Shown here: positions 26,879 through 47,725 of the stretch, piece by piece
How positions within the stretch are numbered: position 1 is the stretch's first letter
Layout of the letters: every line of letters starts with the position of its first letter
Source: Bdellovibrionota bacterium
Lineage (GTDB): Bacteria > Bdellovibrionota_C > UBA2361 > CAKMMH01
DNA: 64,000 nt
Assembly: GCA_050952645.1 (NCBI GenBank)
Contig: JBMNLI010000007.1
Coordinates: forward strand, 64,001 to 128,000
Direction: 5' to 3'
Program-made: the position numbers and the translations under genes
Notes under the pieces: generated by a model
The model's database searches: none
Told to the model about the DNA's origin: nothing
Seen by the model: the letters and a program-made list of their open reading frames with translations, nothing else

Positions 26879-28736
26879 CCTTAACTTTGCAAAAAAGTTC
26901 ACCTAAAATTTTTTTTGTAATTTTTTATTTATTTGAGCAGCTTTTAATCTTACCTTATCAGCATCTATATCAAACGCATTTAATATAGTTTTTTGTCTTT
27001 TGCTTACTGCATAGCTCAGCTGATATAAATCCTTACTCCCTCTTACCATTTCAATTTTTTCAAGTTCTTTTAATGCGGCAGGAACATTCATATAGTTTGG
27101 CTTTTTTGTTAGCTTAGAAAGTTCTTCATTAAGTAGAATATAAATGCGATTGCGAATTATAAGTGCTATAAACTCTATAAAAATTTTAGCAGATACTGCC
27201 TGAGATGAATGAACTCTCATACTTTTTGAGCCTAAAAAAGTCTTATCAATAGCAAAAAGTTTCTCAGTTGCGTCTCTACCCTTGTAAAGTATTATAGCTT
27301 CTTTAGCACTCATTTCTTCCGAACTAACAAGACAAAAATACCCACATAAATTAAGAGCCTTTTGAATTTCATCTGCTCTCTCTTCTACTTTTCTTAACTT
27401 TCCTTGATTGTCATAACTTAAATCAAAAAATTGCTTATACGTTTGTCCAAACTTTGTATCTTTGCCAATATGGTTTTTTAAAAATTGTTCAAACTCCTCT
27501 AATTTAATTTCTAGTTGCTCCCTCTCAAATGCTTGCTTTTCCGCACTAAAATAAACATGAAAATAACGCTCCTTACTATCATCATCATATAATTTTGATT
27601 TCACTGTAGTGCCATATACCTTGTATAAGCGAATACTACAGTCTCTTTTAGACTCAAATGTATTCCTGTTTTCTTCTACTAATTTAGAAACTAAAGCCTT
27701 ACACCCTTTTACCATCAATAAAAAAGAAAAACCACTATTATCCATATATTGAATATTATATTTACTAAAATAACCACGGTCTAAAATAAATCCTATCTTT
27801 TTATATCCATACTCTATAACCTTATCTGCCATATGAGTAAATTGAGAAACGTCTGTAATAGAACCAGGATACTCTTCGTAAAATAACGGAACTCTATTCG
27901 TTTGATCAAAGGCAATGGATAAATTAAATACTGGGAATCCTTTTTCGTCTTTCGCTTTACCAAACTCTACTAATTCAACATCACCTGCTTGACAGTTCTT
28001 ATTAGTCGAATCATATGAAACGTAAACCATTTGATTGCGATCTTTTCCCTTGTTCCAATCGTCAAGAAAGTTAATTATCTGCTCTTTGCTAACAGAAGAA
28101 AGAAAACGACTTATGGTAGAATCACTATAGATGCGCATACCTTTTGTAAAGAGTGGATGAGAAAAGGCGTAGTCTGGATAATACTGACTGACATTCTCTT
28201 CATTTACAATAAAATAACTCGCTAAATCAAGTATAAGTTCACTACGTTCACCAAAATGTTTTTTTAGTAAAAAAGGCAAATTAAATTCATTTGCTACTTT
28301 TTCAATCACCAAGTGGGGACCTATACGAAGACAACAACTGCGTGAAGCGTCTGAAAATTTCTCGGGCATAGGGGCATCTGGAAAATAATTACTATAATTG
28401 TCATTAGGGTACATAATATCATCTCTACCATCAACTAATTTTCCAATAACGCTACGCTTTGGATTAGTATACTGTTTCTCTTTATTATAAGTGCGATCGT
28501 ATTCAAAAAGCACATATTTTGCTTCCCCTTTTTCTCTTATAATTATTTTATTTCTTTGCTCTGGTAATGGAACTGTTCGATTGTAATTCATAAAACCTCC
28601 TTTAGGTTAACGGTTGCACTAAAAGTATAGCATAGTAAATACACAGATGCAAGTAAAAAAATGCATAATTTAACGATTATTTCTTATTTATTTTAATTGA
28701 TTATTTGTTTAGGTGAACTTTTTTGAAAAGTTAAGG
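26879..28736 (-). mobile_element. IS1634-family insertion sequence, copy 1 (1858 bp)
   Basis: TIRs CCTTAACTTT(G/T)CAAAAAAGTTCACCTAAA; 5-bp target duplication ATAAT (26874-26878 / 28737-28741). Confidence 0.92.
26903..28591 (-). CDS. IS1634-family DDE transposase
   Basis: YDSTN, YPGSITD, ILDRGYFS, YKGRDATEKLF; protein identical to 56266-57954. Confidence 0.88.
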   Translation of the reverse strand: MNYNRTVPLPEQRNKIIIREKGEAKYVLFEYDRTYNKEKQYTNPKRSVIGKLVDGRDDIMYPNDNYSNYFPDAPMPEKFSDASRSCCLRIGPHLVIEKVANEFNLPFLLKKHFGERSELILDLASYFIVNEENVSQYYPDYAFSHPLFTKGMRIYSDSTISRFLSSVSKEQIINFLDDWNKGKDRNQMVYVSYDSTNKNCQAGDVELVEFGKAKDEKGFPVFNLSIAFDQTNRVPLFYEEYPGSITDVSQFTHMADKVIEYGYKKIGFILDRGYFSKYNIQYMDNSGFSFLLMVKGCKALVSKLVEENRNTFESKRDCSIRLYKVYGTTVKSKLYDDDSKERYFHVYFSAEKQAFEREQLEIKLEEFEQFLKNHIGKDTKFGQTYKQFFDLSYDNQGKLRKVEERADEIQKALNLCGYFCLVSSEEMSAKEAIILYKGRDATEKLFAIDKTFLGSKSMRVHSSQAVSAKIFIEFIALIIRNRIYILLNEELSKLTKKPNYMNVPAALKELEKIEMVRGSKDLYQLSYAVSKRQKTILNAFDIDADKVRLKAAQINKKLQKKF

Positions 28737-31456: not shown

Positions 31457-32776
31457 ATGTCATGTTTTAATTCTAACGAACTTATAGCAAGGATTATAGC
31501 ACCAAGTTTTGGAAAAGATTTTATTGGTGTAGTCGTTGATGCTAAAGATAAGAACGTAATAAATAAAAAAGTTTTTATTCCTTACGTTTTAGTCGGTGAG
31601 CTAGTAAGGGTAAAAGTATTAAAAGACAGTAAGAATTTCCTGCGTGGTGAAGTTTTAGAGATTGTGGAAGCTTCCCCTTTTAGAGTAGAGCCTAAGTGTC
31701 CATCGTTTTATAGATGTGGTGGGTGTCATTATCAGCATATAGAGTATAGTCAGCAGTTAGAGTATAAAAAGAAAGTAGTTAGTGATTTTCTTTTGTTTCA
31801 ATCTAAGATTTTATCTAGTGATAGTGTAGATGACAATATAAAAGATGGTGGTATAAAAGTTTTAGGTGATAGTAATTTATCTTCTTTTTATTATAGAAAG
31901 AGAGCGGTTATTCATATTTTAGAAAATGGTAAGATGGGTTTTTTTGAGAACGGAACTCACAGCGTGGTAGATTTTGATGAATGTGCATTGTTATCTAGGG
32001 AGCTTTTAGAGTGTTATAAGATTTTAAAGCCTATAATTAGTAAGTATGGTAAATATTTTTATTCGCTAACTTTAGATATAGAAGGTAGTGATATTTATGT
32101 AATTTTAAGTATTAGAGATGAAAGCCTATTAAAGGAGTTAAGGTTTAATAATTATTTTAAAATTTATGAAGATTTGCCGTATAAGTTTATTTTTAAGTAT
32201 AGGGGCCAGGATGTTTTTAAAACATTTTCCCATGAAGATTCAGCAGGTAGTTTTTCTCAAGTAAATATTGAGGCTAATAAGTTTTTAGTAGATTTTGTAA
32301 TCAAAGAGGTTTCAGAGATTTCTAGTAAGCAAGGGATTTTAAATAGTATAACGGAGCTTTATGCTGGTGCTGGAAATTTTACTTTTTTACTTTCCGATTA
32401 TGCAAATAGAGTTGATGCTGTTGAACTAGATGGAGAGTTAGTAAAAAAGGGCATTAGTCTTTCTTTAAGTAAGGGATTAGAAGGTAAGGTAAATTTTATT
32501 CAAAGTTCGTGTGAAAAGTACGTAAAAAAAAATAAATTAGGTGCCCTTGTTCTTTTAGACCCTCCAAGGGGTGGAGCAAAGGAGGTTGTAAAATATATCA
32601 ATTTAAAGGATACGAAAAGCATAGTTTATATTAGTTGTTATCTTCCAACATTTCAAAGAGATTTAAAGGCTCTTTTAAGTAAGGGTTATAAGATGACTGC
32701 CCTTGCTCTGTTAGATATGTTTCCTAATACGCATCACGTGGAGTGCGTAGCATTACTACAAAGGGAAATTATGTAG
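31457..32776 (+). CDS. rlmD: 23S rRNA (uracil-C5)-methyltransferase RlmD/RumA; last 12 codons supplied by the island
   Basis: TRAM domain, CPSFYRCGGC Fe-S motif, ELYAGAG, DPPRGG, YISC, DMFPNTHHVE. Confidence 0.9.
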   Translation: MSCFNSNELIARIIAPSFGKDFIGVVVDAKDKNVINKKVFIPYVLVGELVRVKVLKDSKNFLRGEVLEIVEASPFRVEPKCPSFYRCGGCHYQHIEYSQQLEYKKKVVSDFLLFQSKILSSDSVDDNIKDGGIKVLGDSNLSSFYYRKRAVIHILENGKMGFFENGTHSVVDFDECALLSRELLECYKILKPIISKYGKYFYSLTLDIEGSDIYVILSIRDESLLKELRFNNYFKIYEDLPYKFIFKYRGQDVFKTFSHEDSAGSFSQVNIEANKFLVDFVIKEVSEISSKQGILNSITELYAGAGNFTFLLSDYANRVDAVELDGELVKKGISLSLSKGLEGKVNFIQSSCEKYVKKNKLGALVLLDPPRGGAKEVVKYINLKDTKSIVYISCYLPTFQRDLKALLSKGYKMTALALLDMFPNTHHVECVALLQREIM

Positions 32777-32913
32777 AAATCCTGAGATTCAAGCTCTTTC
32801 ACAACTATTTTGCCTTCGAAGAAGATGAGGCTAATTTTAAGAAAAAAGTGCTAAAAAAGTATTTCAATGTTTCAGTGGTGATTGACCTAGTTAGTGGAGA
32901 CATAAGAAAATAA
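32737..32913 (+). other. Detached 3' segment of the serine recombinase gene (58 codons, in frame only in the excised circle)
   Basis: RGVRSITTKGNYVEILRFKLFHNYFAFEEDEANFKKKVLKKYFNVSVVIDLVSGDIRK*; in frame with the recombinase after att joining; followed by a terminator. Confidence 0.75.
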
Positions 32914-32927
32914 GGATAGTTAAGAAT

Positions 32928-32955
32928 CAGCAAGGATAAAATCTTGCTGGTTTTT
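32928..32955 (+). terminator. Rho-independent terminator
   Basis: CAGCAAG/CTTGCTG stem plus T tract. Confidence 0.65.
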
Positions 32956-32970
32956 GCATTTATACTTTCA

Positions 32971-33059
32971 GACTTGTTAAAAGGACAAGTCAAGAATGAT
33001 GGTTTTGATAATTCTAGAATGGCAAAAATGAAAAGTCTAGACTTGTCAAAAAGACAACC
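32971..33059. promoter_or_regulatory. Two operator-like palindromes, GACTTGTC-N5-GACAAGTC consensus
   Basis: Copies at 32971-32991 and 33040-33059. Confidence 0.45.
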
Positions 33060-33292
33060 TAACTATATAGAGATTAGTTAGATTGATAGAGTTAGATATA
33101 TATTAGGGCTGAAACGGTGGTTTACCGTATTAGATAATAGTAAGAGCTATTAAGTAGAAATAACTATTAAAAAATACTAACTATATGATACAATTATATA
33201 CAATAATTATAATAAATTAATTTATATAAAATATGTGGTAACAAAAGCTTATTAATCAATGTTTATATTAAAAAAATAAGAGGAGGAATACA

Positions 33293-34792
33293 ATGCCAAT
33301 AAATTCAGCAGACTTAGGATTTGAGAACGAAATTTGGAGTGCAGCAAATAGACTAAGAGGAAATATGGATGCTTCAGAATACAAGCATGTAGTATTAGGG
33401 CTAATATTTTTAAAATATATATCAGATAGCTATGAAAATAGATATCAAGAACTTTTAGAAGAAGGTGCAGGCTTTGAAGAGGAAAAAGATGAATACATAG
33501 GAGAAAACATCTTCTATGTACCTGAAAAAGCTAGATGGTCCTATATATCAAGGCATGCCAATCAAGCTGAAATAGGCCAAGTAATAGACCAAGCTATGGT
33601 TGCCATCGAAAATGAGAATATTAGACTAAAAGGGATTTTACCTAAAAATTTTGCCAGGCCTGAATTAGACAAAAGGAAACTAGGAGAGGTAGTAGATTTA
33701 TTTACAAATATTGCTTTAGTTGATTATGGTGATAAAAAGGATATTTTAGGCAGAACCTATGAATTTTGCTTAGCTATGTTTGCAGAACAGGAAGGAAGAA
33801 GAGCTGGTGAGTTTTACACTCCTTCGTCCATAGTAAAGACTCTGGTTGAAATTTTAGAACCCTATAATGGGCAAGTTTATGATCCTGCCTGCGGAGCTGG
33901 AGGTATGTTTGTGCAGTCAGCAAAGTTTGTTGAAAATCATCATGGTTCCATAAGAGATATATCAGTTTTTGGACAAGAAGCAAATCCAACAACCTGGAAG
34001 CTTGCGCACATGAATTTAGCTATTAGAGGAATAGAAGCTAATTTAGGTAAAGAATTTGCAGATACATTTTTTAATGACCAACACCCAACCCTAAGAGCAG
34101 ATTTTGTCCTAGCTAATCCACCCTTCAACATGTCAAACTGGGGAGGTAACAGTCTTATGGATGATAAAAGATGGAAGTACGGGGCACCCCCACAAGGAAA
34201 TGCAAACTTTGCCTGGCTACAACATATGATCTACCATCTTTCACCCAAGGGGAAAATAGGAATGGTTCTAGCCAATGGATCCCTATCTAGCCAAACTGGT
34301 GGAGAAGGTAAAATTAGAGAAAATATAATAAAAGATGACCTTGTAGAATGTATAGTAGCTATGCCTACACAACTATTCTACTCAACAGGAATACCAGTGT
34401 CCCTTTGGATCTTAAATAAGGATAAAAAACAAAAAGGCAAGACCCTCTTTATTGATGCAAGGAACATGGGAGAAATGGTTACTAAAGCCCATAGGGATCT
34501 AAAAGAAGAAGAGATACATAAAATTGCTGACACCTATAAGGGCTTTATAGAAGGAAACTTAGAAGAAGTTCAAGGCTATTCAGCCATAGCAAGTCTAGAA
34601 GATATAGAAAAACATGACTTTGTTCTAACTCCAGGAAGATATGTGGGTATTGAAGATATAGAAGATGATGGTATCCCATTCGATGAGAAAATGGAGAATA
34701 TGACAACTGAGTTAGCCGAACTCTTTGCCAAATCCCGAAAGCTAGAGGATGAGATCAAAAAGAATCTAGGGGGGATTGGGTATGAGGTTTAG
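33293..34792 (+). CDS. hsdM: Type I R-M methyltransferase subunit
   Basis: GEFYTP, YDPACGAGGMF, ANPPFN. Confidence 0.96.
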   Translation: MPINSADLGFENEIWSAANRLRGNMDASEYKHVVLGLIFLKYISDSYENRYQELLEEGAGFEEEKDEYIGENIFYVPEKARWSYISRHANQAEIGQVIDQAMVAIENENIRLKGILPKNFARPELDKRKLGEVVDLFTNIALVDYGDKKDILGRTYEFCLAMFAEQEGRRAGEFYTPSSIVKTLVEILEPYNGQVYDPACGAGGMFVQSAKFVENHHGSIRDISVFGQEANPTTWKLAHMNLAIRGIEANLGKEFADTFFNDQHPTLRADFVLANPPFNMSNWGGNSLMDDKRWKYGAPPQGNANFAWLQHMIYHLSPKGKIGMVLANGSLSSQTGGEGKIRENIIKDDLVECIVAMPTQLFYSTGIPVSLWILNKDKKQKGKTLFIDARNMGEMVTKAHRDLKEEEIHKIADTYKGFIEGNLEEVQGYSAIASLEDIEKHDFVLTPGRYVGIEDIEDDGIPFDEKMENMTTELAELFAKSRKLEDEIKKNLGGIGYEV

Positions 34793-36047
34793 TGAGTGGA
34801 GAGAAGTTAAAGTTTCTGAAATCGGTAAAGTTGTAACTGGTAAAACCCCAAAAACAGCTATTAGCGAGAATTACGGGGGAAATATTCCGTTTTTGACGCC
34901 CTCCGATGACATGAATATAAAAAAAGTAAAAAGTACAGCAAGAACTCTTTCTGAAATGGGACTTAATTCAGTTAAAAACTGTTTGTTACCAGCTAAATCT
35001 ATTTGTGTTAGTTGCATTGGATCAGATTTAGGCAAGGTGGTTTTAACTAGTGAGCCTACAGTAACAAACCAACAGATTAATTCAATTGTTCCAGATGAGA
35101 ATTTTGATCCTGATTTCATATATTATAGAATGACGATTTTGGGAAAACACTTAAATTATTTAAGTAAAACATCTACAGCTGTACCGATAATAAATAAGAC
35201 CACATTTTCAAATTTTTCTATAATAGTGCCATCAATAGAAGAACAAAAAGCCATTGCGCACATCCTCTCAACTTTAGACGAAAAAATCGAAGTAAACAAC
35301 CAGATTAACAAAACCCTTGAGAATATGGCACAGGCAATTTTCAAACAATGGTTTGTAGATTTCGAGTTTCCCAATGAAGATGGAGAACCATATAAGTCCA
35401 GTGGTGGAGAGATGATTGAAAGTGAGCTTGGGATGATTCCTAAGGGGTGGGAAGTAAAGAGAATTGGGGATGAGTGCATCTGTTCCTTAGGAGGCACTCC
35501 TAGTAGACAAAAATCAGATTACTGGAATGGAGATATTCCTTGGGTCAATTCAGGTGAAGTAAATAATTTTAGAATTTATAAACCTTCGGAATATATTACG
35601 AAGTTGGGTTTGGAAAAATCGGCAACTAAATTGCTTAAGAAGAAAACCACTGTTTTAGCAATTACAGGAGCAACATTAGGACAAGTCAGTTTGTTAGAGA
35701 TTGACACTTGTACTAATCAATCTGTAGTCGGTATAAGCGAAAATGATAAGATTTCACACGTATATATATATCCGTATGTAAAAAGTGTTATCGAAAAAAT
35801 AATTGGGAATCAAACTGGTGGAGCACAACAACATATTAATAAAAGAAATGTTGAGGATACAAAATTATTAATTCCAAATAAGAAAGTCCTGAACACTTAT
35901 ACTATATTGGTAAGACCTCAATATGACTTGATATCTTCTATATGTTTTGAAAATGAGCTTTTAACAAGACTTCGCGACTCACTTCTACCCAAACTAATGT
36001 CTGGAGAAATAAGAGTTCCCCTGGATGAGGACGGTGATGCATCGTGA
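34782..36047 (+). CDS. hsdS: Type I R-M specificity subunit
   Basis: Two TRDs; EQKAIAHILSTLDEKIE; LRDSLLPKLMSGEI. Confidence 0.94.
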   Translation: MRFSEWREVKVSEIGKVVTGKTPKTAISENYGGNIPFLTPSDDMNIKKVKSTARTLSEMGLNSVKNCLLPAKSICVSCIGSDLGKVVLTSEPTVTNQQINSIVPDENFDPDFIYYRMTILGKHLNYLSKTSTAVPIINKTTFSNFSIIVPSIEEQKAIAHILSTLDEKIEVNNQINKTLENMAQAIFKQWFVDFEFPNEDGEPYKSSGGEMIESELGMIPKGWEVKRIGDECICSLGGTPSRQKSDYWNGDIPWVNSGEVNNFRIYKPSEYITKLGLEKSATKLLKKKTTVLAITGATLGQVSLLEIDTCTNQSVVGISENDKISHVYIYPYVKSVIEKIIGNQTGGAQQHINKRNVEDTKLLIPNKKVLNTYTILVRPQYDLISSICFENELLTRLRDSLLPKLMSGEIRVPLDEDGDAS

Positions 36048-36145
36048 AGTTTGGCTTTAGAAAACCTAGCTTAAAGAGAAGAATTTCTGCTAGGACCAGT
36101 ATAAAAAGACAGGTTGTGCACCGGGCAGGAATAAAGATGCCTTAA
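36044..36145 (+). pseudogene. Truncated small basic mobile-element protein (MKFGFRKPSLKRRISARTS...)
   Basis: GTG overlaps the hsdS stop; ends at an apparent deletion junction. Confidence 0.5.
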
Positions 36146-36699
36146 TTTGGGAAAGTATACTTAAATACAAGGAAAACAATCCACATGTGAATATTGTTTT
36201 CCTTTCAGAAGATAAAGAGTTTAACGAAACTTTGTCTCAAGAGTTTGAGAATCGCTTTGGTGATAAAATACACATTATAAAAAAAGAAGAAGAATTCACA
36301 GTATTAAAGACAATTACAGAAGAAATATATGCTGTGATTGGTGAGGTCCTGATAACTAAGCCTGATACTGTCTCTTATGATGAAAAGCTAAAGGGGGCTT
36401 TTTATGAGTGGTATGATAGTGAAGTATTTGAAGAAGAGTTAGAAAATGCTATAAATAAATATATAAATAGAAGGGAAAAATTTATTAGATACAATGAGTT
36501 GTTGGATAAAGAAATAAAGGAGATAGAATTTATTAATGAGGATAAAATGATTTTGGTTATGGATTGTAATATTGAGCTAGAAAACAAGAAAATTACAGGA
36601 GAAAAGTTTGAGGCAATAGAAAGATTTGCATTTAACATTAAAGTGTATGAAGATTTCTTTAAAATCGAAAATGTAGTTGAAATAGATTTGGAGGGTTAA
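36133..36699 (+). pseudogene. 5'-truncated PIN-like (DUF4935-type) protein
   Basis: The frame of the 36187 ORF reads KDALIWESILKY...IVFLSEDKEF upstream of and through the called start. Confidence 0.55.
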
Positions 36700-36716
36700 A
36701 AAGGAGGGACAGGCCT

Positions 36717-39700
36717 ATGAAATTTACAGAAGATATATATGAAGGAGCAATCTTAGAAATAATCCAAGATCTAGGATATACCTATATACCTGCTGGGGAC
36801 ATAGAAAGAGACTCATATAAAGATCCACTTTACATGGGAGACCTCTATGAGTCTTTGGTTAGGATTAACCCTAGCCTATCTTTGGATGTAATAGGCTCAG
36901 CTATCTTCAACTTGCAAAATATAAATGTAGGTAGCCTGGTTCAAAGGAATAAAATCTTTATGGGTTGGCTTCAAAATGGAATGGAAGTAAGCTATATGGA
37001 AAATGGTCAAGAAAAGACCGCTCTAGTCTATCTTGTAGATTTTAAGGAAGAGGATCTTGATAAGAACTCTTTTGTTATAACCAATCAATGGACTGTAGCC
37101 GGAAACTATCAAAACAGGAGGCCTGACCTAGTCCTATTTGTAAATGGCCTTCCCCTAGTAGTTATGGAACTAAAATCAGGCTCATCAGAAAGCGCAGACA
37201 TATCTTCAGCCTATAGGCAGATAAAAAACTACCAAAAAGATATAGAAGAACTATTTGTCTATAATGCCTTTAATATTATATCAGACCATACCTATTCCAA
37301 GGCAGGAACTATTTCCTCCAGTGAAGAATGGTACAAGGAGTGGAAGACTGAAGATGGGTCCTATGAAGATACTAGGTATGCAGCCTATGATGTTCTTTTT
37401 AAGGGTATTTTAGAAAAGTCAAGGTTCCTAGATATTATTAAAAACTTCTTAATGTTTGAAAATAAAACTCCCCAAGATATAAAGATAATGGCCCAGTACC
37501 ACCAATACTATGCAGTGAGAAAGGCTGTTGATTCAACCCTAAAAGCTACTGAAACAGACGGTAGAGGTGGGGTTTTTTGGCATACCCAAGGTTCGGGAAA
37601 ATCTTTATCTATGGTTTTTTATATAAAGCTTTTAAACTCCTACTTAAGCAATCCTACATATGTGATTATAACAGATAGAAATGACCTAGATGAACAGCTT
37701 TTTGGTCAATTTTCTAGAGTCAAAGAATTTATAAGGCAAACACCTATCCAGGCTAAGTCTAGAGACAATCTTAAGGAAATACTAGATGGAAGACTGGCTA
37801 ATGGAATATTTTTTACAACCATGCAGAAGTTTTCCGAGTCAGATTCTCCTTTAAGTGACAGAAAAGATATTATTGTAATAGCTGATGAGGCCCACAGAAG
37901 CCAGTATGGTCTAAAAGAGAGAATGGACAAGGATGGAAATATAAGGGTAGGCATGGCTAGAATTATTAGAGATTCTTTACCAAATGCCACCTATATTGGT
38001 TTTACAGGAACACCTATAGAATCTGAAGACAAAGATACTCAAGAAGTCTTTGGAAATTACATAGATATATATGATATGACTCAATCTGTAGAAGATGGAG
38101 CAACGAAACCTATTTACTATGAAAATAGGGTAATTAATCTAGGCTTAAATGAATCAATCCTAGAAGAGATAGATGAAAAATATAAGGAATTAGCCCTTCA
38201 TGCTAGGGAAGAAGACATAGACCAAAGCAAGAGACAACTAAGCAAACTAGAATCCATCTTAGGTTCAGAAACTGTAATAGATGGCTTGGTAACTGATATA
38301 CTTAAGCACTATGAAGAAGATAGGGCCCATTTATTAACAGGTAAAGCTATGATAGTAGCCTACTCTAGACCTATTGCTATGAAGATATATAAAAAACTCT
38401 TAGACCTGAGACCAGAATGGGAAGAAAAGGTTAAGGTGGTTATGACAGGTAATAATAATGATCCAGAAGATTGGAAGGATATCATAGGCAACAACCACCA
38501 TAAGAGGGAACTTGCAGGAAAATTTAAAGATGATGATGACCCAATGAAGATTGCTATAGTAGTAGATATGTGGCTAACAGGTTTTGATGTGCCAAGTTTA
38601 GCTACTATGTATGTATTTAAACCTATGAGGGACCACAACTTAATGCAGGCTATAGCTAGGGTAAATAGAGTTTTCCAAGACAAGGAAGGTGGCCTAGTAG
38701 TAGACTATATAGGTATAGCCAAGGCTCTCAAGGATGCCATGTCTGACTATACAAGAAGAGATAAGGAGAATTATTCCAACCCAGATATTAGAGAAAAGGC
38801 CTATCCTAAATTTCAGGAGAAACTGGAAGTATGTAGGAATGAATTTCTTTTTGGTCTTAAATATAGACCTATATTCGATGAAGACTTAAGTCCTAAAGAT
38901 AGATCTGACCTTATAACAGAAGGTATAAATCATATATATAAATTCAATGAGGACAAGCAAAAATCCTTCAAAGAAGAATCCTATATATTAAGACAAGCCC
39001 ATAGCCTTTGTTCATCCATAAGCACTAGAGAAGAACAAAGAGAAGCAGCCTTTATTGAAGCTATCAGAATAGGAGTAAGTAGGATTGAAAAGGATGGACA
39101 GATATCCCTAAAAGAAATTAATAGGCAGATAGAAGAGCTTTTAGAAAACTCTATAAGGTCTGAGGGGGTAATAAATCTCTTTTCAGATATAGATAGGGAG
39201 TGTTCCTTATTTGATGAAGAATTCCTTATGAGTGTAGCTATGATGAAGCAGAGAAACCTAGCAGTAGAATTGATGAATAAACTTCTAAGGGAACAAATCA
39301 AGCTATATTCAAGGACAAATATAGTTAAATCAGAAGAATTTTCTAAAAAGATGAAAAGAATAATGGACCACTATAGACAAATACAAATAGATAATGCGGA
39401 GAGTCTAGATGAATTTATTCGACAACACCATGATAATGAAGTAAATAAGGTAATAGATGAGCTTCTAGATCTAGCTAGGGATATAGTCAAGGCAGATAAA
39501 ATTGGAGAAGAAATAGGATTAACCAAGGAAGAAACCTCCTTCTACCACGCAATTACATCTCCAGAGGCAGTAAAAGATTTTTATGAAGATGATATTTTAA
39601 TAGAAATGGCTAAGGAATTAACTAAAGAGCTACAAGAGAATGAATCTATTGACTGGCAATATAAAGAGTCTGGTAGGGCTAAGATGAGATCCATCGTAAG

Positions 39701-39809
39701 AAGACTCCTAAGAAAGTACAAGTATCCTCCAGAAGGAGTAAGAGAGGCTCTAGAAATAGTATTAAAGCAGTGTGAGCATTGGACAGAGAGTAGAGAATAT
39801 TTTTATTAG
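36717..39809 (+). CDS. hsdR: Type I R-M restriction subunit
   Basis: RPDLVLFVNGLPLVVMELK, HTQGSGKS, DEAHRSQY, FTGTP, QAIARVNR. Confidence 0.96.
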   Translation: MKFTEDIYEGAILEIIQDLGYTYIPAGDIERDSYKDPLYMGDLYESLVRINPSLSLDVIGSAIFNLQNINVGSLVQRNKIFMGWLQNGMEVSYMENGQEKTALVYLVDFKEEDLDKNSFVITNQWTVAGNYQNRRPDLVLFVNGLPLVVMELKSGSSESADISSAYRQIKNYQKDIEELFVYNAFNIISDHTYSKAGTISSSEEWYKEWKTEDGSYEDTRYAAYDVLFKGILEKSRFLDIIKNFLMFENKTPQDIKIMAQYHQYYAVRKAVDSTLKATETDGRGGVFWHTQGSGKSLSMVFYIKLLNSYLSNPTYVIITDRNDLDEQLFGQFSRVKEFIRQTPIQAKSRDNLKEILDGRLANGIFFTTMQKFSESDSPLSDRKDIIVIADEAHRSQYGLKERMDKDGNIRVGMARIIRDSLPNATYIGFTGTPIESEDKDTQEVFGNYIDIYDMTQSVEDGATKPIYYENRVINLGLNESILEEIDEKYKELALHAREEDIDQSKRQLSKLESILGSETVIDGLVTDILKHYEEDRAHLLTGKAMIVAYSRPIAMKIYKKLLDLRPEWEEKVKVVMTGNNNDPEDWKDIIGNNHHKRELAGKFKDDDDPMKIAIVVDMWLTGFDVPSLATMYVFKPMRDHNLMQAIARVNRVFQDKEGGLVVDYIGIAKALKDAMSDYTRRDKENYSNPDIREKAYPKFQEKLEVCRNEFLFGLKYRPIFDEDLSPKDRSDLITEGINHIYKFNEDKQKSFKEESYILRQAHSLCSSISTREEQREAAFIEAIRIGVSRIEKDGQISLKEINRQIEELLENSIRSEGVINLFSDIDRECSLFDEEFLMSVAMMKQRNLAVELMNKLLREQIKLYSRTNIVKSEEFSKKMKRIMDHYRQIQIDNAESLDEFIRQHHDNEVNKVIDELLDLARDIVKADKIGEEIGLTKEETSFYHAITSPEAVKDFYEDDILIEMAKELTKELQENESIDWQYKESGRAKMRSIVRRLLRKYKYPPEGVREALEIVLKQCEHWTESREYFY

Positions 39810-39836
39810 AGAATTAGGGATAAAGGAGGTTATTAA

Positions 39837-40748
39837 ATGATTCCAAAATATGATGAAATGATTTTACCTATTTTAAAAATTATTTCAGATGGACAAGAAT
39901 ATAATAATAGTAGGATAGAAGATGAGCTGAGCAAGGTTTTTAATTTCACCGATGAAGATAGAAAAATGAAACATAAATCAGGAGTAAGGATAGTATATGA
40001 CAGAATCAGTTGGACTAAATCATATATGAAGCAAGCTAGATTAATAGAGGTGCCTAAGAGAGGAATTTTTAATATTAGTGCTAGAGGACTACAAGTTTTA
40101 GAAGATGATATTGATCTAGTTGATAGGAATTATTTAATGAAATTTCAAGAATTCAGGGATTTTATAAACAGAGGAAAAAATGAGAATTCAGTGGAAGATA
40201 TTCTAGAAGAAGTAGATAGTGAAGATACTCCCTTGGAGACTATAGAAAAATCTATGAAAAAATTAAATTCTTCTTTAATAGAGGATGTATTAGAAAAGCT
40301 TATAGCCATTGACTTTTATAAATTTGAAGATATTGTATTGGATCTTTTAATTAAAATGGGTTATGGAGGATCTAAAGAAGAGGCTAAACAATCTACCAGT
40401 AAAACTCAAGATGGAGGAATAGATGGAATAATTAATGAAGATAGATTGGGCTTAGATAGGATCTACATACAGGCAAAAAGATGGAAAGATACTGTTGTAG
40501 GCAGACCTGAAATTCAAAAATTTTCCGGTGCTCTAGATACTCCAGGAGCAATGAAGGGAGTTTTTATAACAACCTCAACTTTTTCAGATTCTGCAATTCA
40601 ATATGCTAAAGACTTGGTAAATAAAAAGATAATTTTAATTGATGGCATCCAATTGGCAAATTATATGATTGAATTTAATTTGGGTGTATCAACAGATATA
40701 GTTTATGAAATTAAAAGAATAGATAGTGATTATTTTTTAGAAGAGTGA
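39837..40748 (+). CDS. mrr: Mrr type IV restriction endonuclease
   Basis: N-terminal wHTH MIPKYDEMILPIL; DGGIDGII, IYIQAKRW, GVFITTS. Confidence 0.93.
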   Translation: MIPKYDEMILPILKIISDGQEYNNSRIEDELSKVFNFTDEDRKMKHKSGVRIVYDRISWTKSYMKQARLIEVPKRGIFNISARGLQVLEDDIDLVDRNYLMKFQEFRDFINRGKNENSVEDILEEVDSEDTPLETIEKSMKKLNSSLIEDVLEKLIAIDFYKFEDIVLDLLIKMGYGGSKEEAKQSTSKTQDGGIDGIINEDRLGLDRIYIQAKRWKDTVVGRPEIQKFSGALDTPGAMKGVFITTSTFSDSAIQYAKDLVNKKIILIDGIQLANYMIEFNLGVSTDIVYEIKRIDSDYFLEE

Positions 40749-40764
40749 AGATATTGAATGTAAA

Positions 40765-40810
40765 TCTCCCAGTTGAATTTTAAAAATCTAACTGGGAGAC
40801 TTTTATTTTA
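40765..40810 (+). terminator. Rho-independent terminator after mrr
   Basis: TCTCCCAGTT/AACTGGGAGA plus T tract. Confidence 0.75.
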
Positions 40811-40912
40811 ACTAGGGGCTTAGGGGGAACCCCTAAATCTTTCTGATAAGAACAAGTAGAAAATTGGCTAGAAGAAGCAAGTCTAAAAAAGGCTGGCTTC
40901 TTCTATTTTTTT

Positions 40913-40943
40913 GTAAGTGTGTCTACACTTACTGTGCTTGCTA
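40913..40943 (+). other. Putative oriT (hairpin plus nic-like GTGCTTGC)
   Basis: GTAAGTGT-gtct-ACACTTAC immediately followed by TGTGCTTGCTA. Confidence 0.5.
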
Positions 40944-41013
40944 TTAAGGTTTTATGAATTTCATCCTAAATTTTCTTTATATTATTTTTCCATAATATTA
41001 TCATAGAAAGATT

Positions 41014-41170
41014 TGTAACTGTAACCTAGGATTTCCAAAGTCCTTAAATAAGGCAAGTATCATAATTTCATATTCCATAACCCTTGATATAAGAAGCTTT
41101 CATTTTTTTCCTGGTCTATTTCTAAGGGTTTTAAAAGTTTGGTTACAAGTTACAAGGTTACAAAGTTACA
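41014..41170. repeat. Inverted GTTACA iteron-like sets flanking an AT-rich spacer (putative replication origin)
   Basis: TGTAAC x2 (41014, 41020); GTTACA x4 (41142, 41149, 41157, 41165). Confidence 0.55.
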
Positions 41171-41329
41171 ATTAATCTTATCTTTTTTTCTGTGTCTATT
41201 TTTTCTTTTCTGGATTTACTTTTTCAAAATAGCGAATCAAAAGGCTTATATTTTCACTCTTATATATAAGGGGGGAAAATATTTCTCCCTAAATAAAAAG
41301 AGTGAAAAAAAGTAAAGGAGAAGAAAAAG

Positions 41330-41476
41330 ATGAGAAATGAAGTTTTAGAATATAGTATCCAGCTAGCCATGCTTAGGCAATTATTACTTGAAAAGCTAAT
41401 AGATAAAAGAGAATATTTTAAGATAAAAGAAGTACTTATGAAAGAATATAATATTTCTTCAGATTTGACCTGCTAA
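41330..41476 (+). CDS. 48-aa SHOCT-like protein upstream of the recombinase (missed by the ORF track)
   Basis: AGGAG RBS; MRNEVLEYSIQLAMLRQLLLEKLIDKREYFKIKEVLMKEYNISSDLTC. Confidence 0.75.
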   Translation: MRNEVLEYSIQLAMLRQLLLEKLIDKREYFKIKEVLMKEYNISSDLTC

Positions 41477-41535
41477 ATGAAACTAGTCGCGGTAAAATGG
41501 GATTGTATAGAAAAACACAAAAGAGAGGTGGTCAA

Positions 41536-43377
41536 ATGAAGAAGGTAGAAGTAATAAAAGGTGAAGGGCTTTTAGCAGGTGTAAGAAATGGACTAGAGAT
41601 TAATTTGAAAAGGGTAGCAGCCTATTGTAGGGTAAGTACTGACAGTGAAGATCAACTTCAAAGTTATCAACCCCAGGTCAAATATTATACAGATTTAATC
41701 AATGAAAATCCTGATTGGACTATGGCAGGAATATATGCAGATGAAGCTATCACAGGGACACAGATAGATAAAAGACTAGATTTTTAAAGGCTAATAAATG
41801 ATTGTATGAATGGTGATATAGACATGATTATCATCAAGTCTATATCCAGATTTGCTAGGAATACTTTAGATACTCTCAAATATGTAAGGCAATTAAAAGA
41901 AATAAATGTAGCAGTATTTTTTGAAGAGGAAAATATTAATACCTTAACTATGGATGGAGAATTGCTTTTAGTTATCCTTAGTTCAGTTGCCCAGCAGGAG
42001 GTAGAAAATATTTCTGCTAATGTAAAAAAAGGCTTGAAGATGAAAATGCAAAGGGGGGAATTAGTAGGATTTCATGGCTGCCTAGGTTATGATTATGATA
42101 GGAATAGTAAAACCATATCCATAAATGAAGATGAGGCTGAAATAGTAAAATATATCTTCAGGAGATACTTAGAAGGGGCAGGGGGAAGTGTAGTATGCAG
42201 GGAGTTAGAAAACCTTGGCTACAGATCTCTTAGAGGTTCTAGCAAATGGTCAGCAACTACTGTCTTAGGAATTATAAAAAATGAAAAATACAAGGGAGAT
42301 CTTTTAATGGGAAAGACCTTTACGGTAGACCCTATAAGTAAAAGAAGGTTAGAAAACTTTGGGGAGGAAGATAAGTTTTATATAAAAAACCACCATGAGC
42401 CAATAATTAGTCAAGAAGATTTTGAAAAGGCTCAGGCCATTAGAGAAAAAAGAGCTTGGTCTAGGAATACAGTAAAATCAAAGGATGGAAAAAGAGAAAA
42501 ATTTAGCCGAGAATATGCCTTTTCTTGTTTACTAGAGTGTGGTTTCTGTGGTTCAAATTTATCCAGAAGGACCTGGCATAGTAACTCCCAATATAATAAG
42601 GTCATCTGGCAATGTGTAACAGGAACTAAGAAGGGAATAAGATTTTGTCCTAATTGTAAAGGGATAGAAGAAATAGCCATAGAAAAAGCTTTTCTAGAAA
42701 ACTATAGACAGCTTACATCAAATAATAAAGATACAGTAAGTAAGTTTTTAGAAATAATAGAAAGCACCTTAAATGATAAGAGCCTAGAGAAAAATATAAA
42801 GAAGTTAGAAAGAGAAATCTTTAATATATCCAATAAACAAAATTCCTTAATTGACTTAAGACTAGAGGAAAAGATTGATAGCCACCTATATGAAGAAAAA
42901 TATTTGTCCCTACAGAAGGACTTCTTAGAAAAAACTAAGGAAAAAGAATCCTTAGAATTTAATCTGATAAACAACAATGAAATAAAAAGCAGGATGAAAA
43001 CCTTCAAATCCATCTTAGAAAAAAAGAAAGTTCTAAAGGAATTTGACAGGTATGTATTTGAAAGCATAGTAGAGAAGGTAATAGTGGGAGAAATAGATGA
43101 AAAGGGTAATGCAGATTCATATAAGCTTACTTTTATCTATAAGACAGGCTTTAAGTATGATTTAAATGGAGAAGATTTTAAGCCTCCTAGAAAGAATGCT
43201 AAGAAGAATAAGGGAGATAAAAAAGACTTCGATAAATTGTCTTCTCTTATTGAAAACAAGGAAGAAAAATTTCCTTCCCATATAACTAACTCCACACATA
43301 GAGGTTGTAGGGGTGCTTCAAGCGTTAAATTGATGATATTTTTTTTTAAACTAAATTTTTTCTTGAATTGGAACTAA
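41536..43377 (+). pseudogene. Large serine recombinase with one in-frame TAA (41785-41787); reads through attR into host DNA
   Basis: AYCRVST, YADE, KSISRFARN, recombinase domain, CGFCG zinc ribbon, coiled coil; the two ORF-track pieces are in the same frame. Confidence 0.9.
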
Positions 43378-43471
43378 AATATTTATTATTTAAAAGTTAA
43401 ATTTAGCTTTTTTTTTGTAGACTATATAAAAAATAGTAAAAGAGATATGTCTAACTATGGTTAGCAACGCT
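43295..43471 (+). repeat. Host DNA copy A: displaced rlmD 3' end, intergenic region and start of the next gene
   Basis: Identical to 47548-47725 except T9 vs T10. Confidence 0.93.
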
Positions 43472-43580
43472 AGGTATATGAAGCTGTGGTAATGATATTC
43501 AAAATAAACATTCTTATGAATAGAAAAATACTGTAATAGTTGATATAATCAAGTAATATTATTGGTTAGGAGGTGTTTTT

Positions 43581-43690
43581 GTGGCGGAAACTAGCAAAGA
43601 AATAGTTATAATTAGTTAGGAAGCTATAGAAAATATGATTTATACTACAAGGAATCAAAAGGCGATGTTTGATTTTGAGCTTACAGTAAA
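43581..43690 (+). pseudogene. ORF6N/KilA-N-like N-terminal remnant
   Basis: AGGAGG plus GTG; EAIENMIYTTRNQKAMFDFEL after an in-frame TAG. Confidence 0.45.
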
Positions 43691-43709
43691 ATCTAAGGGA
43701 TAATTTTGT

Positions 43710-44577
43710 ATGTCAAGTAATAAGAAAATAAAACTAGGGCAATTTTTTACGACGGGTTATGAATGGCTAAAGCCTCATGTTAAAGAGTTTATCGTTAAAT
43801 CTAATTGCACTGTAGCATACGACCGCTGGAGCAGGACATTTATTAGAGGTCGCTTCTTTCTATGGAATTAAACATGTAGTTGGTTTAGATATTGATCGGA
43901 GTTTAGACTGGGAATTAAACGATTCGTTAAAAAAAATTCCAAGTATTGATAATGCGATTATTATTACTAATCCTCCATATTTAGCAAAGCAATCTGCAAC
44001 TAGAAAAAAAATGGATTTATCAGAATATTTTAATTCGAGTGTATATGATGATTTATATTTAATCGCTTTAGACAGAATGCTAGAAGCACAAAAATATGTA
44101 GTTGCCATTATCCCAGAGTCTTTTATCAACTCTTCTTATAGAAAAAAACATTTATTATCATCTATAACGATATTAGAAGAAAATCCTTTTACAGATACTG
44201 AGGTTCCAGTTTGTGTAGTATGTTTTGATGGTGTGGGAAAGGATTTTAAAGATATAAAAGTTTATAAGAATGGAGATTTTGAAAATGACTTAGAAACGAT
44301 AGAGGCAATGAAACTTAGTCCAAGGGGGAATATAGATATTTCGTTTAATAATTTAAATAGCTGGGTAGGGCTTCGAGCGGTTGATAGCACTGATGATAGA
44401 GTGTGTATCAAGTTTGATTTCAAAGAAAATATTAAATATGATTGGGAAAATAATATAAAGGTTTCTTCAAGACATTATATGCTTATTGATATAAAGATTA
44501 AGGATTTTAAAAAGGGAGCATTTATTGAAGAATGTAATAAAATCTTAAGTACTATAAGAAAAAAATCTGCCGACACT
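43710..44577 (+). pseudogene. Frameshifted amino-DNA-methyltransferase-like gene, 3' fused to foreign fragments
   Basis: LGQFFT, broken YDP-AGAG motif at about 43820, ITNPPY. Confidence 0.7.
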
Positions 44578-44743
44578 ATGAACGAATTATACGAATTTAT
44601 GAAACAGGTCGATGTGATTGTGCTTTTCTGCCTGATCTACGGTCTTGCCATCAACGGCATCGTGTGGACGGTAAGTCAAACAATATTGGCTTGCCCTGTC
44701 AGAGCCATTGATTATATTGAATAAAATTTAAATAGTTTGATTT

Positions 44744-44759
44744 TGTTGTAAATGCAACA
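44744..44759. promoter_or_regulatory. Crp/Fnr-family (HcpR-type) palindrome upstream of the hcp operon
   Basis: TGTTG-TAAATG-CAACA, flanked by TTGATTT/AAATCAA. Confidence 0.55.
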
Positions 44760-44861
44760 TACAAATCAATTTTATAAAGATATAATCGAAATAACAAACT
44801 TGATGGAATTATCTGGTTATGCTATCTAATATCTAGGCACAAATTTATGGAGGTGTATAAA

Positions 44862-45176
44862 ATGATTGAGCAAATTTATGAAATGTCAACTGGAGATGAA
44901 AAAGCGGTTGAAAGAGTAATTCAGGATGAAAATATTCATTATATTCATATGGTCTTTAATAAGGATGAAGGCCTCCCAGAACATTTCTCTAATTCCAACG
45001 TTTATATGACAGTGGTAAGAGGGACTTTATCTATCGGGCTAAATGATCAAGAAGTTCACCAATATGATAAAGGAACTCTTTTGAAGATTCCTGTAAATAC
45101 AAAGATGAATGTAAAAAATTTATCCAAAAGTGTGCTTGAGTTAATTGTTGTAAAAGCACCGGCACCTTTGAAATAG
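44862..45176 (+). CDS. Cupin-domain protein
   Basis: EGLPEHFSNSNVYMTVVRG; RBS GGAGGTG; typical hcp neighbour. Confidence 0.85.
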   Translation: MIEQIYEMSTGDEKAVERVIQDENIHYIHMVFNKDEGLPEHFSNSNVYMTVVRGTLSIGLNDQEVHQYDKGTLLKIPVNTKMNVKNLSKSVLELIVVKAPAPLK

Positions 45177-45215
45177 TGAAACAAAATTTATAATCATTGA
45201 AAGGAGGAGCAAATA

Positions 45216-45380
45216 ATGATAAAATATGTATGTATCCCATGTGGATATATCTATGACCCACAAATAGGTGATCCAGATAGTGGAATAGCCCCTGGCACTG
45301 CGTTTGAAGATATCCCTGATAATTGGGTTTGCCCAATTTGCTTTGTGGGTAAAGATGAGTTTGAACCAGTAAAGGAATAA
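45216..45380 (+). CDS. Rubredoxin (54 aa; missed by the ORF track)
   Basis: [12 protein letters not shown]...[15 protein letters not shown]. Confidence 0.96.
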
Positions 45381-45398
45381 TACGAAGGAGGAACGATT

Positions 45399-47030
45399 AT
45401 GAGTATGTTTTGTTACCAATGCCAAGAAACCGCAAAAGGTACCGGTTGTGAGGTAAGAGGTGTGTGTGGCAAAAATGAGGAAGTTGCAAAATTGCAAGAC
45501 TTGCTGATTTATGTTACAAAAGGGATTTCTGAAATCGTGGTAAAAGGAAAAGTGGATGTTAAATCCATAAGTGAAGTAAATCATGAAGTTTTAAAAAGCC
45601 TTTTTATCACTATTACAAATGCTAATTTTGATGACGGTGCAATCGAAAATCAAATCCATAAAATGATTGGATTTAGAAACGAGCTAAAAAAACAGATTTC
45701 TGGTGTTAACCTTGGTGATGCGGCGGAGTTTGAAGTAAGCGATAGAGCGTCTATGTTAGACAAAGCATCTAAAGTAGGTGTTCTTTCAACCGAAAATGAA
45801 GATGTTCGTTCTCTTAGAGAAATGATTATCTATGGTTTGAAAGGTATGGCGGCATATACCCATCACGCTCTTAATATCGGAAAAGAAGATATTGCTATCA
45901 GTGCATTTATTTATGAAGCACTTGCGTCAACCCTTGATGATTCGTTGTCTGCAGATGATCTTGTGGCATTAACATTAAAGACAGGCGAGTTTGGCGTGAA
46001 GGCCATGGCACTGTTAGATGAAGCCAATACCTCTAAATATGGAAATCCTGAAATAACCAGCGTTAATATTGGGGTAAGAAACAATCCTGGAATACTGATT
46101 TCAGGCCATGACCTTACTGATTTAGAGCAACTACTGGAACAAACCAAGGGTACTGGTATTGATGTTTATACCCATAGCGAAATGCTTCCGGCACATTATT
46201 ATCCATTTTTTAAGAAGTATGATAATTTTGCGGGAAATTACGGCGGTTCATGGTGGCAGCAAGTTACCGAATTCGAAACCTTTAATGGACCAATCTTGTT
46301 TACTACAAACTGCATCGTACCTCCAAGAAGCGAAGAAATCAGAAAAAGAATCTTTACTTCCGGTGCATCGGGCTATCCTGGATGTCCTCACATCACAGCT
46401 GATGAAAATGGCAAAAAAGATTTTTCTGAAATTATTGCGATGGCAAAGCAGTGTAAGCCTCCTGTAGAAATTGAATCAGGCAATATTGTTGGCGGTTTTG
46501 CTCACAACCAAGTTTTTGCTCTTGCAGACAAAGTAGTTGATGCAGTAAAATCAGGTGCAATTAAGAAGTTTTTCGTCATGGCAGGCTGTGATGGCAGAAT
46601 GAAATCTCGTGAGTATTACACTGAGTTTGCAGAAAAACTACCGAAGGATACGGTTATTCTTACTGCAGGATGTGCCAAGTACCGTTATAATAAACTTGAG
46701 TTAGGAGATATTGGTGGTATTCCAAGAGTTCTTGATGCTGGCCAATGTAATGATTCCTACTCTCTTGCAGTAATCGCATTGAAGCTGAAAGAAATATTTG
46801 AACTTGAGGACGTTAACGATCTGCCGATTGCATTTAACATCGCATGGTATGAGCAAAAAGCGGTAATTGTCTTACTTGCATTACTTTATTTAGGTGTTAA
46901 GAATATTCACCTTGGTCCTACCTTGCCAGGATTTTTATCTCCTAACGTTGCAAAGGTCCTTGTTGAAAAGTTTGGCATTGCAGGTATCGGACAAGTTGAA
47001 GATGATATCAAGTTATTCATGGGCGAATAA
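45399..47030 (+). CDS. hcp: Hybrid cluster protein (hydroxylamine/NO reductase)
   Basis: [45 protein letters not shown]. Confidence 0.97.
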
Positions 47031-47051
47031 TTCGTACTGATGTTTTAAATG

Positions 47052-47094
47052 AAAGGCAAAGATTCTGGTTGGAAATCGGAATCTTTGCCTTTTT
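47052..47094 (+). terminator. Rho-independent terminator after hcp
   Basis: AAAGGCAAAGATTC/GAATCTTTGCCTTT. Confidence 0.85.
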
Positions 47095-47106
47095 ATATTT
47101 AGAAAT

Positions 47107-47304
47107 ATGTATGTAGATGATTACTATCCACCACCGAAACGTCCCGGTTTTTTTGCTACATTATTTGGCGTGATTGCAGGTATCGATATTGCTACGGACG
47201 TTGGAATTATGGGCATGACCATGTTCACGGTTGCCAATTTGGTGGTAATAGAGGCAGTGGAGGTATGGACTAAGAGAAGGGATAGTCAAATGTTTCAAAG
47301 GTAA
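47107..47304 (+). CDS. Hypothetical small membrane protein or fragment
   Basis: ORF track; hydrophobic; lies in a mosaic region. Confidence 0.3.
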   Translation: MYVDDYYPPPKRPGFFATLFGVIAGIDIATDVGIMGMTMFTVANLVVIEAVEVWTKRRDSQMFQR

Positions 47305-47547
47305 ATTCCATTGTGAAAACGCATTGTTTAATCCAGACATTATGATTTCTGAATTAGATAAGATATTTGATAAATAGAGAGAAAGTAAACTTTCAGTTTC
47401 ATGGAGAGTCAAATTCCAATTTGTCTAATAGATGAGAATTATAATTTCTTGGATATATTCCCGCAAACGGCTCAAATACGAAAAAGGCTGTGGATATATT
47501 CCCTTGCTCGTAAAAATAGCCAAGACATTCAGCCTGTCGTATTGAGC

Positions 47548-47725
47548 CACATAGAGGTTGTAGGGGTGCTTCAAGCGTTAAATTGATGATATTTTTTTTT
47601 AAACTAAATTTTTTCTTGAATTGGAACTAAAATATTTATTATTTAAAAGTTAAATTTAGCTTTTTTTTTTGTAGACTATATAAAAAATAGTAAAAGAGAT
47701 ATGTCTAACTATGGTTAGCAACGCT
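47548..47725 (+). repeat. Host DNA copy B (second attR-like junction at CAC 47548-47550)
   Basis: Duplicate of 43295-43471, continuing into host sequence. Confidence 0.93.

Follow-up and report, generated by a model that had tools for sequence, protein, structure and literature searches.

Integrative and conjugative elements (ICEs) and integrative and mobilizable elements (IMEs) of streptococci that use a single serine integrase insert in rumA, with attL in rumA and attR in the integrase gene. A repeat of 2-21 bp is present in both genes, and integration reciprocally exchanges their 3' parts with a change of frame (PMC4701971). The two integrase forms that result probably differ in function, as in phage Mx8 (PMC4701971). 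Here we describe an island of similar design in a 64,000-nucleotide stretch of contig JBMNLI010000007.1 (assembly GCA_050952645.1, deposited as a Bdellovibrionota bacterium); this whole stretch is called the window, and positions refer to it. The island is seated in the last codons of rlmD (rumA), and its large serine recombinase gains in the free circle a 58-residue C-terminal tail which integration removes. The tail is conserved as protein, is inherited with the recombinase and is predicted to dock where directionality factors bind. Comparisons with published systems refer to excerpts of the sources cited.

The locus has attL at the 3' end of rumA, attR within the integrase gene, a frame change and a short repeat, all as in the streptococcal elements. 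The initial annotation knew of no characterised example of the double exchange of tails; this was not borne out, as both the split and the double swap have been published for rumA-targeting single serine integrases and neither is new (PMC4701971). In the excerpts of that report the swapped tail is not described as a conserved domain and no mechanism is assigned to it. The window island differs further in lacking conjugation and relaxase genes and in its host, which is likely not a Firmicute. What appears to be added here is the detachable domain, with its conservation and its predicted docking site; the anatomy is known from published work. The tail is not described as a domain in the literature searched (papers free of subscription, with the supplements of PMC12286644 only), and the main text of PMC10083194 mentions neither rlmD nor rumA.

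Other described systems share single features with the locus. In Myxococcus phage Mx8 attP also lies in the integrase gene, the C-terminus is replaced and the integrated form is less active, but the enzyme is a tyrosine recombinase to which the logic of a coiled coil and cofactor site does not apply (as cited in PMC4701971). The integrase of SPbeta type has the same domain order and fold, and the window tail is predicted at the junction used by its directionality factor, in the same strand-addition mode; that factor, however, is a separate protein under expression control, whereas the tail is tethered and removed by recombination (PMC11722253, PMC12286644). Extra C-terminal strands are likewise predicted over the cofactor site in CcrA, CcrB and CcrC of SCCmec (PMC12286644). 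TnpX and TndX are further element-borne serine recombinases without a known factor, but in the excerpts consulted neither their extensions nor those of Ccr are reported to be split off by integration. Clostridium difficile CTn7 has one large serine recombinase, inserts in an RNA-methyltransferase gene and forms circles; the excerpted text makes no mention of a tail swap (PMC3158075).

The window recombinase carries a serine resolvase domain (Pfam) and is not a tyrosine recombinase, so that its likeness to Mx8 and SSV1 is confined to the placement of attP. Integration of SSV1-type viruses splits the integrase gene into two fragments; these are tyrosine enzymes that use tRNA genes. In contrast, the window recombinase keeps all catalytic and DNA-binding domains in one piece.

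Attachment sites and exchanged gene ends

The features of the two island ends, all on the forward (+) strand, are as follows.
31457..32776, +, host rlmD/rumA, hybrid (Pfam tRNA_U5-meth_tr and TRAM; translation)
32735..32737, +, attL core CAC with crossover dinucleotide AC (comparison of ends)
32737..32913, +, circle-only 58-aa C-terminal module of the recombinase (reconstruction, dN/dS, profile, structure prediction)
32921..32956, +, terminator-like hairpin (sequence)
41536..43377, +, large serine recombinase, integrated form (Pfam Resolvase, Recombinase, Zn_ribbon_recom)
43295..43297, +, attR core, within the recombinase gene (comparison of ends)
43298..43333, +, displaced host rlmD tail, IEVVGVLQALN and stop (translation; RlmD ends of host relatives)

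The 10.6-kb island runs from 32738 to 43297 and its ends have exactly three bases in common, CAC (32735-32737 and 43295-43297). When the ends were rejoined by script, the 7-bp inverted repeat around AC that had been claimed for the circle proved perfect, with further paired positions outward and far fewer in the empty host site. A dinucleotide crossover with almost no shared homology and a dyad attP are the hallmarks of a large serine recombinase. The perfection of the repeat is largely peculiar to the window copy, since in 12 other reconstructed sites only the inner three positions are nearly always paired. Mean pairing in these 12 was 10.2/25, against 6.6 for host-side halves. Cognate tail and recombinase ends (10.2/25) were no more symmetric than mixed pairs (10.8/25), and symmetry therefore cannot identify partners. 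CA stands directly before the tail in 80 of 84 unique tails, and the attR point is identical and in frame in 25 of the 26 homologous loci with the motif matched. No attP or attB joint was seen in the contigs of four runs, although contigs drop rare variants.

Both genes exchange their ends, as the initial annotation had held. The hybrid rlmD is host-derived up to 32737 and its final 12 codons come from the island, so that RlmD ends in VECVALLQREIM when the island is integrated and in IEVVGVLQALN once the ends are rejoined. The RlmD C-termini of the host's nearest relatives, HVETVGVLEII and HIEVVALIKLEKAHNLN, resemble the latter, and a host origin of the displaced tail fits. The island thus gives RlmD a restored end, shown here for a Clostridia-type element in a likely Bdellovibrionota-related host. 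In return the recombinase, with 587 codons of its own, acquires 26 host-derived residues. Such integrated tails are arbitrary, ranging from 1 to 320 residues in 116 proteins, with 23 of the 116 ending after one residue. Relatives of the recombinase carry the labels Tissierellaceae and Clostridia, while the nearest named relatives of the host RecR (61-66%) carry Bdellovibrionota-type labels; to judge by these matches, the element has likely moved across phyla.

The hairpin at 32921-32956 would end the rlmD mRNA in the integrated state and the recombinase mRNA in the circle. It stands where a terminator behind the tail's stop had been claimed earlier, but such a hairpin is no general trait, with 27 of 78 tails at z below -2.

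Other elements at the rlmD site lengthen RlmD, in its own frame, by a stretch of about 100 residues (C-termini P0038 and P0049), perhaps a second module, different in kind, that uses this site. The site is also shared by prophages that have several serine recombinases (L001 9880-10171; L019 9880-10171; window 47450-47550) and that insert in front of this element class; the repeated short motifs of their right arm resemble the RlmD end.

The circle-only tail is a conserved coding module

In the rejoined circle the recombinase frame, starting at 41536, crosses the join and continues to the stop at 32913, which bears out the proposed 58-codon extension. Only 108 of 20,000 shuffles of this stretch remain open. 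A search with four tails returned 60 loci in genome contigs, and among the 64 loci in hand 53 were open for 56-65 residues, five ran off the contig and six were disrupted. For the ratio of nonsynonymous to synonymous substitution rates (dN/dS), 123 loci yielded 84 unique complete tails and 39 disjoint pairs (two tails, one bearing an indel and the other a premature stop, were left out). Beyond the RlmD overlap dN/dS was 0.25 in the recombinase frame, compared with 0.95 and 1.15 in the other forward frames and 0.42 in the antisense shadow, and differences fell 133/125/291 on the three codon positions. Length and motif are kept at 26-50% identity. The refuting test that accompanied the initial annotation, conservation of the frame behind attP in homologous elements, was therefore survived: the frame is conserved as protein, in phase and together with the recombinase.

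The first 13 tail codons are shared with the RlmD tail and the attP arm. Here the ratio of nonsynonymous to synonymous differences (pN/pS) was 0.46 in the RlmD frame vs 1.29 in the recombinase frame. The two readings do overlap, as the term dual-coding implies, but the arrangement is lopsided; with purifying selection on the RlmD reading only, the recombinase uses these codons as a linker.

A profile search gave 557 tail clusters at 50% identity, and the 150 clusters listed were mostly short open reading frames (ORFs) with unrelated starts. Pfam returned no family for the window tail and, among 80 members, seven one-member matches with E above 0.006; a PDB sequence search gave no match (best E 0.48), nor did a search of the Atlas. 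Judged from its conservation, the tail is a real, unnamed protein module. The idea that it duplicates part of the recombinase was rejected (probability 0.5%). Tails also occur in records titled Thermoguttaceae and Spirochaetales (L037 9989-10162; L076 9995-10174), which suggests further transfers beyond Bacillota.

The tail is inherited with the recombinase

The recombinase was scored in 399 Clostridia genomes with three candidates per genome, which makes the count a floor, and was found in at least 18 of the 399. The tail was present in 17 of these 18 genomes (14 of 15 without the three that had come to light through the tail), compared with 43 of the 382 genomes outside the recombinase set and 60 of 400 in all. 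Thirteen elements have tail and recombinase on a single contig and strand, the tail upstream, and in 12 of the 13 the two join in frame. Identity matrices of tail and recombinase were correlated (Spearman 0.88, n=15 elements); kin are not independent, so this value shows co-inheritance only. Recombinase and tail also occur naturally in a single frame in three records (P0004, L043 and P0212), which represent tandem elements or an assembled junction. In the Peptostreptococcus russellii tandem (L043 6443-10174) the first element's recombinase is in frame with the second element's tail; codon 482 of this recombinase is a stop, and a transposase separates the recombinase from the SHOCT gene.

Only 33 of 84 tails stand directly behind the rlmD motif, and many follow the end of another element. 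One complete genome (G021) has three intact tails (L213, L217 and L221), none of which follows rlmD or has a recombinase within 80 kb. The right-arm pattern of one clade was matched only in a control genome (1/5), and the tail was not found in the one Streptococcus suis record searched, in which the left end may be missing.

The tail is predicted to dock at the directionality-factor site

Domain order and fold of the recombinase are those of a large serine integrase, with a resolvase catalytic domain, a recombinase domain and a zinc ribbon with coiled coil (Pfam, model and fold search). PDB 3G13 represents a catalytic domain from this family (E 9e-103), and the recombinase of an S. suis rum-site element (MN270279) is 63% identical to the close homologue P0012 and has the same end motif.

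The lone tail was predicted to form a two-stranded β-hairpin (residues 12-29 and 35-51) with a predicted local distance difference test (pLDDT) value of 80. In P0004 the linker before the tail (442-502) has a pLDDT under 50, and is probably disordered over about 50-60 residues. A complex was then predicted between the window tail and residues 325-548 of P0012, a recombinase with 83.5% identity. The score was 0.69, against 0.14 for the best of three controls; among solved complexes 116 of 157 attained the mark for this score, and among mismatched pairs 2 of 215. Runs shared at least 78% of contacts, with a partner pLDDT of at least 62. In the model, tail residues 43-52 form a strand pair with residues 529-537, the final strand of the zinc domain, and residues 12-28 contact the helices found at each end of the coiled coil (375-408 and 483-490). 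The predicted docking site therefore lies on the zinc domain at the coiled-coil base, where directionality factors bind. Verified directionality factors have been predicted at the junction of DBD2 and coiled coil, mostly by way of an added β strand, and it was suggested, and left open, that C-terminal extensions could block this site (PMC12286644). In the SPbeta type the factor restrains the first hinge of the coiled coil (PMC11722253).

Searches with the tail fold gave nothing usable in Foldseek (best E 0.65) and, in VIA-align, a best Z of 2.4 to IHF (root-mean-square deviation 7.0, 45 aligned); this outcome shows neither a new fold nor DNA binding. The tail does not behave as a directionality factor encoded as a separate protein, because it is in frame with the recombinase and its start codon is not conserved.

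A proposed switch set by the state of the DNA

A second small gene bears on the function of the tail.
41330..41476, +, 48-aa SHOCT_2 protein, candidate directionality factor (Pfam PF20612)

An ORF of the SHOCT type precedes the recombinase by 31-77 nt in 28 of 30 loci, and the gene is also upstream in the remaining two, in one of them behind an inserted transposase. Gene and recombinase are likely on one transcript, and the ratio of the two proteins would for this reason be a poor switch. Since the circle encodes only the long form, the long form must integrate, and since the chromosome encodes only the trimmed form, the trimmed form must excise.

We infer, as did the initial annotation, that the tail may work as a directionality or activity switch, and propose the following. 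With attP inside the recombinase gene, the free circle encodes the long form with its 58-residue tail; integration removes the tail and leaves the chromosome with the trimmed form only. In the long form the tail would fold back on the zinc domain at the coiled-coil base and block the directionality-factor site, so that the enzyme from an incoming circle would integrate and ignore the 48-aa protein. In the trimmed form the site would be open, and the 48-aa protein could turn the recombinase to excision. The DNA state would then set the direction, and the ratio of the two adjacent genes need not change. As the simplest fit we tentatively favour, at somewhat short of an even chance, that the tail fills the factor's site in the long form and that trimming opens it for the co-encoded protein. 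A little more tentative is the general statement that there is a widespread group of serine integrases with a tethered blocker that is cut off by integrating, the circle being integrate-only and the chromosome excision-ready, with the SHOCT protein as the missing factor and direction stored in the DNA state.

Several points weigh against this proposal. It is its position that makes the 48-aa protein a candidate, no directionality factor was known for serine-recombinase IMEs, and enzymes of TnpX type work both ways on their own (PMC5704250). The SCCmec enzymes, with their extra C-terminal strands, are bidirectional (PMC12286644). The predicted complex pairs two halves of a split gene, with a relative's recombinase (P0012) as partner, and solved integrase-cofactor complexes exist, so that its score may partly reflect likeness; docking at the factor site, as modelled, would also leave the resulting direction unspecified. 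Collecting tails by protein similarity favours a result of coding conservation. One same-contig pair, in G393, fails to join in frame. For six intact tails the 40-80 kb downstream contain no serine recombinase, and the recombinase C-terminus was matched in none of the five orphan-tail genomes (0/5); we read these orphans as the left ends of decayed elements.

The tail could instead act as a dial of activity, as in Mx8 and as already proposed for the streptococcal elements (PMC4701971). It would complete or stabilise the zinc domain and make the long form more active, perhaps in both directions as Ccr enzymes with extra strands are (PMC12286644), while the trimmed form would be weak and the element would stay integrated, with no competition between cofactors. 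Domain completion suits the predicted strand pairing and a lone hairpin in need of a partner surface, but the predicted contacts extend beyond the sheet to the coiled-coil base, and the 48-aa gene before the recombinase in 30 of 30 loci is left unexplained. Related rumA-site elements also readily excise when integrated, as described for S. suis (PMC13651849) and CTn7 (PMC3158075), and we regard the dial as unlikely, though a serious contender.

A tail that serves as a tethered directionality factor, the long form favouring excision and locking attP so that the circle survives for transfer, would agree with its predicted docking in the manner of such factors and with the excisive behaviour of integrase-factor fusions (PMC11722253). 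The sole natural chromosomal long form seen in DNA (L043) also has a stop, yet it is a single case, and a circle that enters a recipient has only the long form to integrate with; this makes a tethered factor improbable. We find it still harder to credit that the tail is a separate small protein made from the rlmD transcript when integrated and acting in trans on the trimmed enzyme. The tail does lie behind rlmD and ahead of a terminator, databases annotate it as a small ORF, intact orphans exist and the complex was predicted in trans; however, the start codon is not conserved (at codon 3 some tails have Val or Met, the rest Asp, Asn or another residue), the conserved frame starts at the crossover in phase with the recombinase, and fewer than half of the tails (the 33 of 84 above) directly follow the rlmD motif. 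A conserved DNA arm that yields the frame as a side effect, with no protein role, would account for the first 13 codons, which attP and RlmD constrain and the recombinase reading does not, but this reading is largely refuted by the third-position excess, the low dN/dS beyond the overlap, the length and motif kept among distant tails and the confident predicted fold.

The proposed switch touches two open questions, the possible blocking of the factor site by extensions raised above and the choice between integration and excision in serine-recombinase ICEs and IMEs without a known directionality factor (PMC5704250). Because the family comes in two natural forms, one with the extension and one lacking it, both questions become one plasmid assay. 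The family includes the recombinases of resistance-carrying rumA elements. All chromosome-annotated copies are the trimmed form, and integrase mining would consequently test the wrong protein.

The window copy and its cargo

The window copy of the recombinase is broken, as it has a TAA at 41785-87 (codon 84) in identical contigs of two studies where related elements have C. A sequencing error was ruled out by the contigs of the two studies. The copy is likely immobile unless helped in trans. The remaining contents of the island are as follows.
32956..33081, +, remnant like the 3' end of an ORF in related elements (sequence match), which we take to be from a replication-initiator gene
33293..40748, +, cargo: hsdM, hsdS, a 170-aa ORF, hsdR, then mrr (Pfam)

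The cargo is of the type I restriction-modification plus Mrr class. By gene content, only restriction genes, the SHOCT gene and the recombinase lie between the att sites, with no relaxase or conjugation gene, and the island is not classed as an ICE or IME. An intergenic block (40793-40943) is about 81% conserved in close elements, and short GTTACAA repeats follow at 41140-41175; this region could hold an origin of transfer (oriT) or a promoter.

A second passenger behind the island

The displaced host tail is present twice, around a second passenger of 4 kb that had been overlooked in the initial annotation.
43295..43471, +, 177-bp direct repeat of host sequence, copy one (self-comparison; contigs)
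43472..47547, +, second passenger: broken ORFs, cupin, rubredoxin, hybrid-cluster protein (Pfam)
47548..47725, +, direct repeat, copy two, after which host sequence resumes (self-comparison; contigs)

The repeat copies are 97% identical over 193 columns. Misassembly was ruled out: contigs from two studies contain both exits, and in one run the repeat is covered at about twice the depth. The right end of the passenger resembles the right-end arm of another rlmD-targeting element class, and it is likely that an earlier element's end was duplicated and the element excised before the island arrived. The passenger (within 43295-47725) is Clostridia-like, has no recombinase and occurs in near-identical copies in other runs. 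A 562-aa DDE transposase gene is present twice in the window, in opposite orientation (26903-28591 and 56266-57954).

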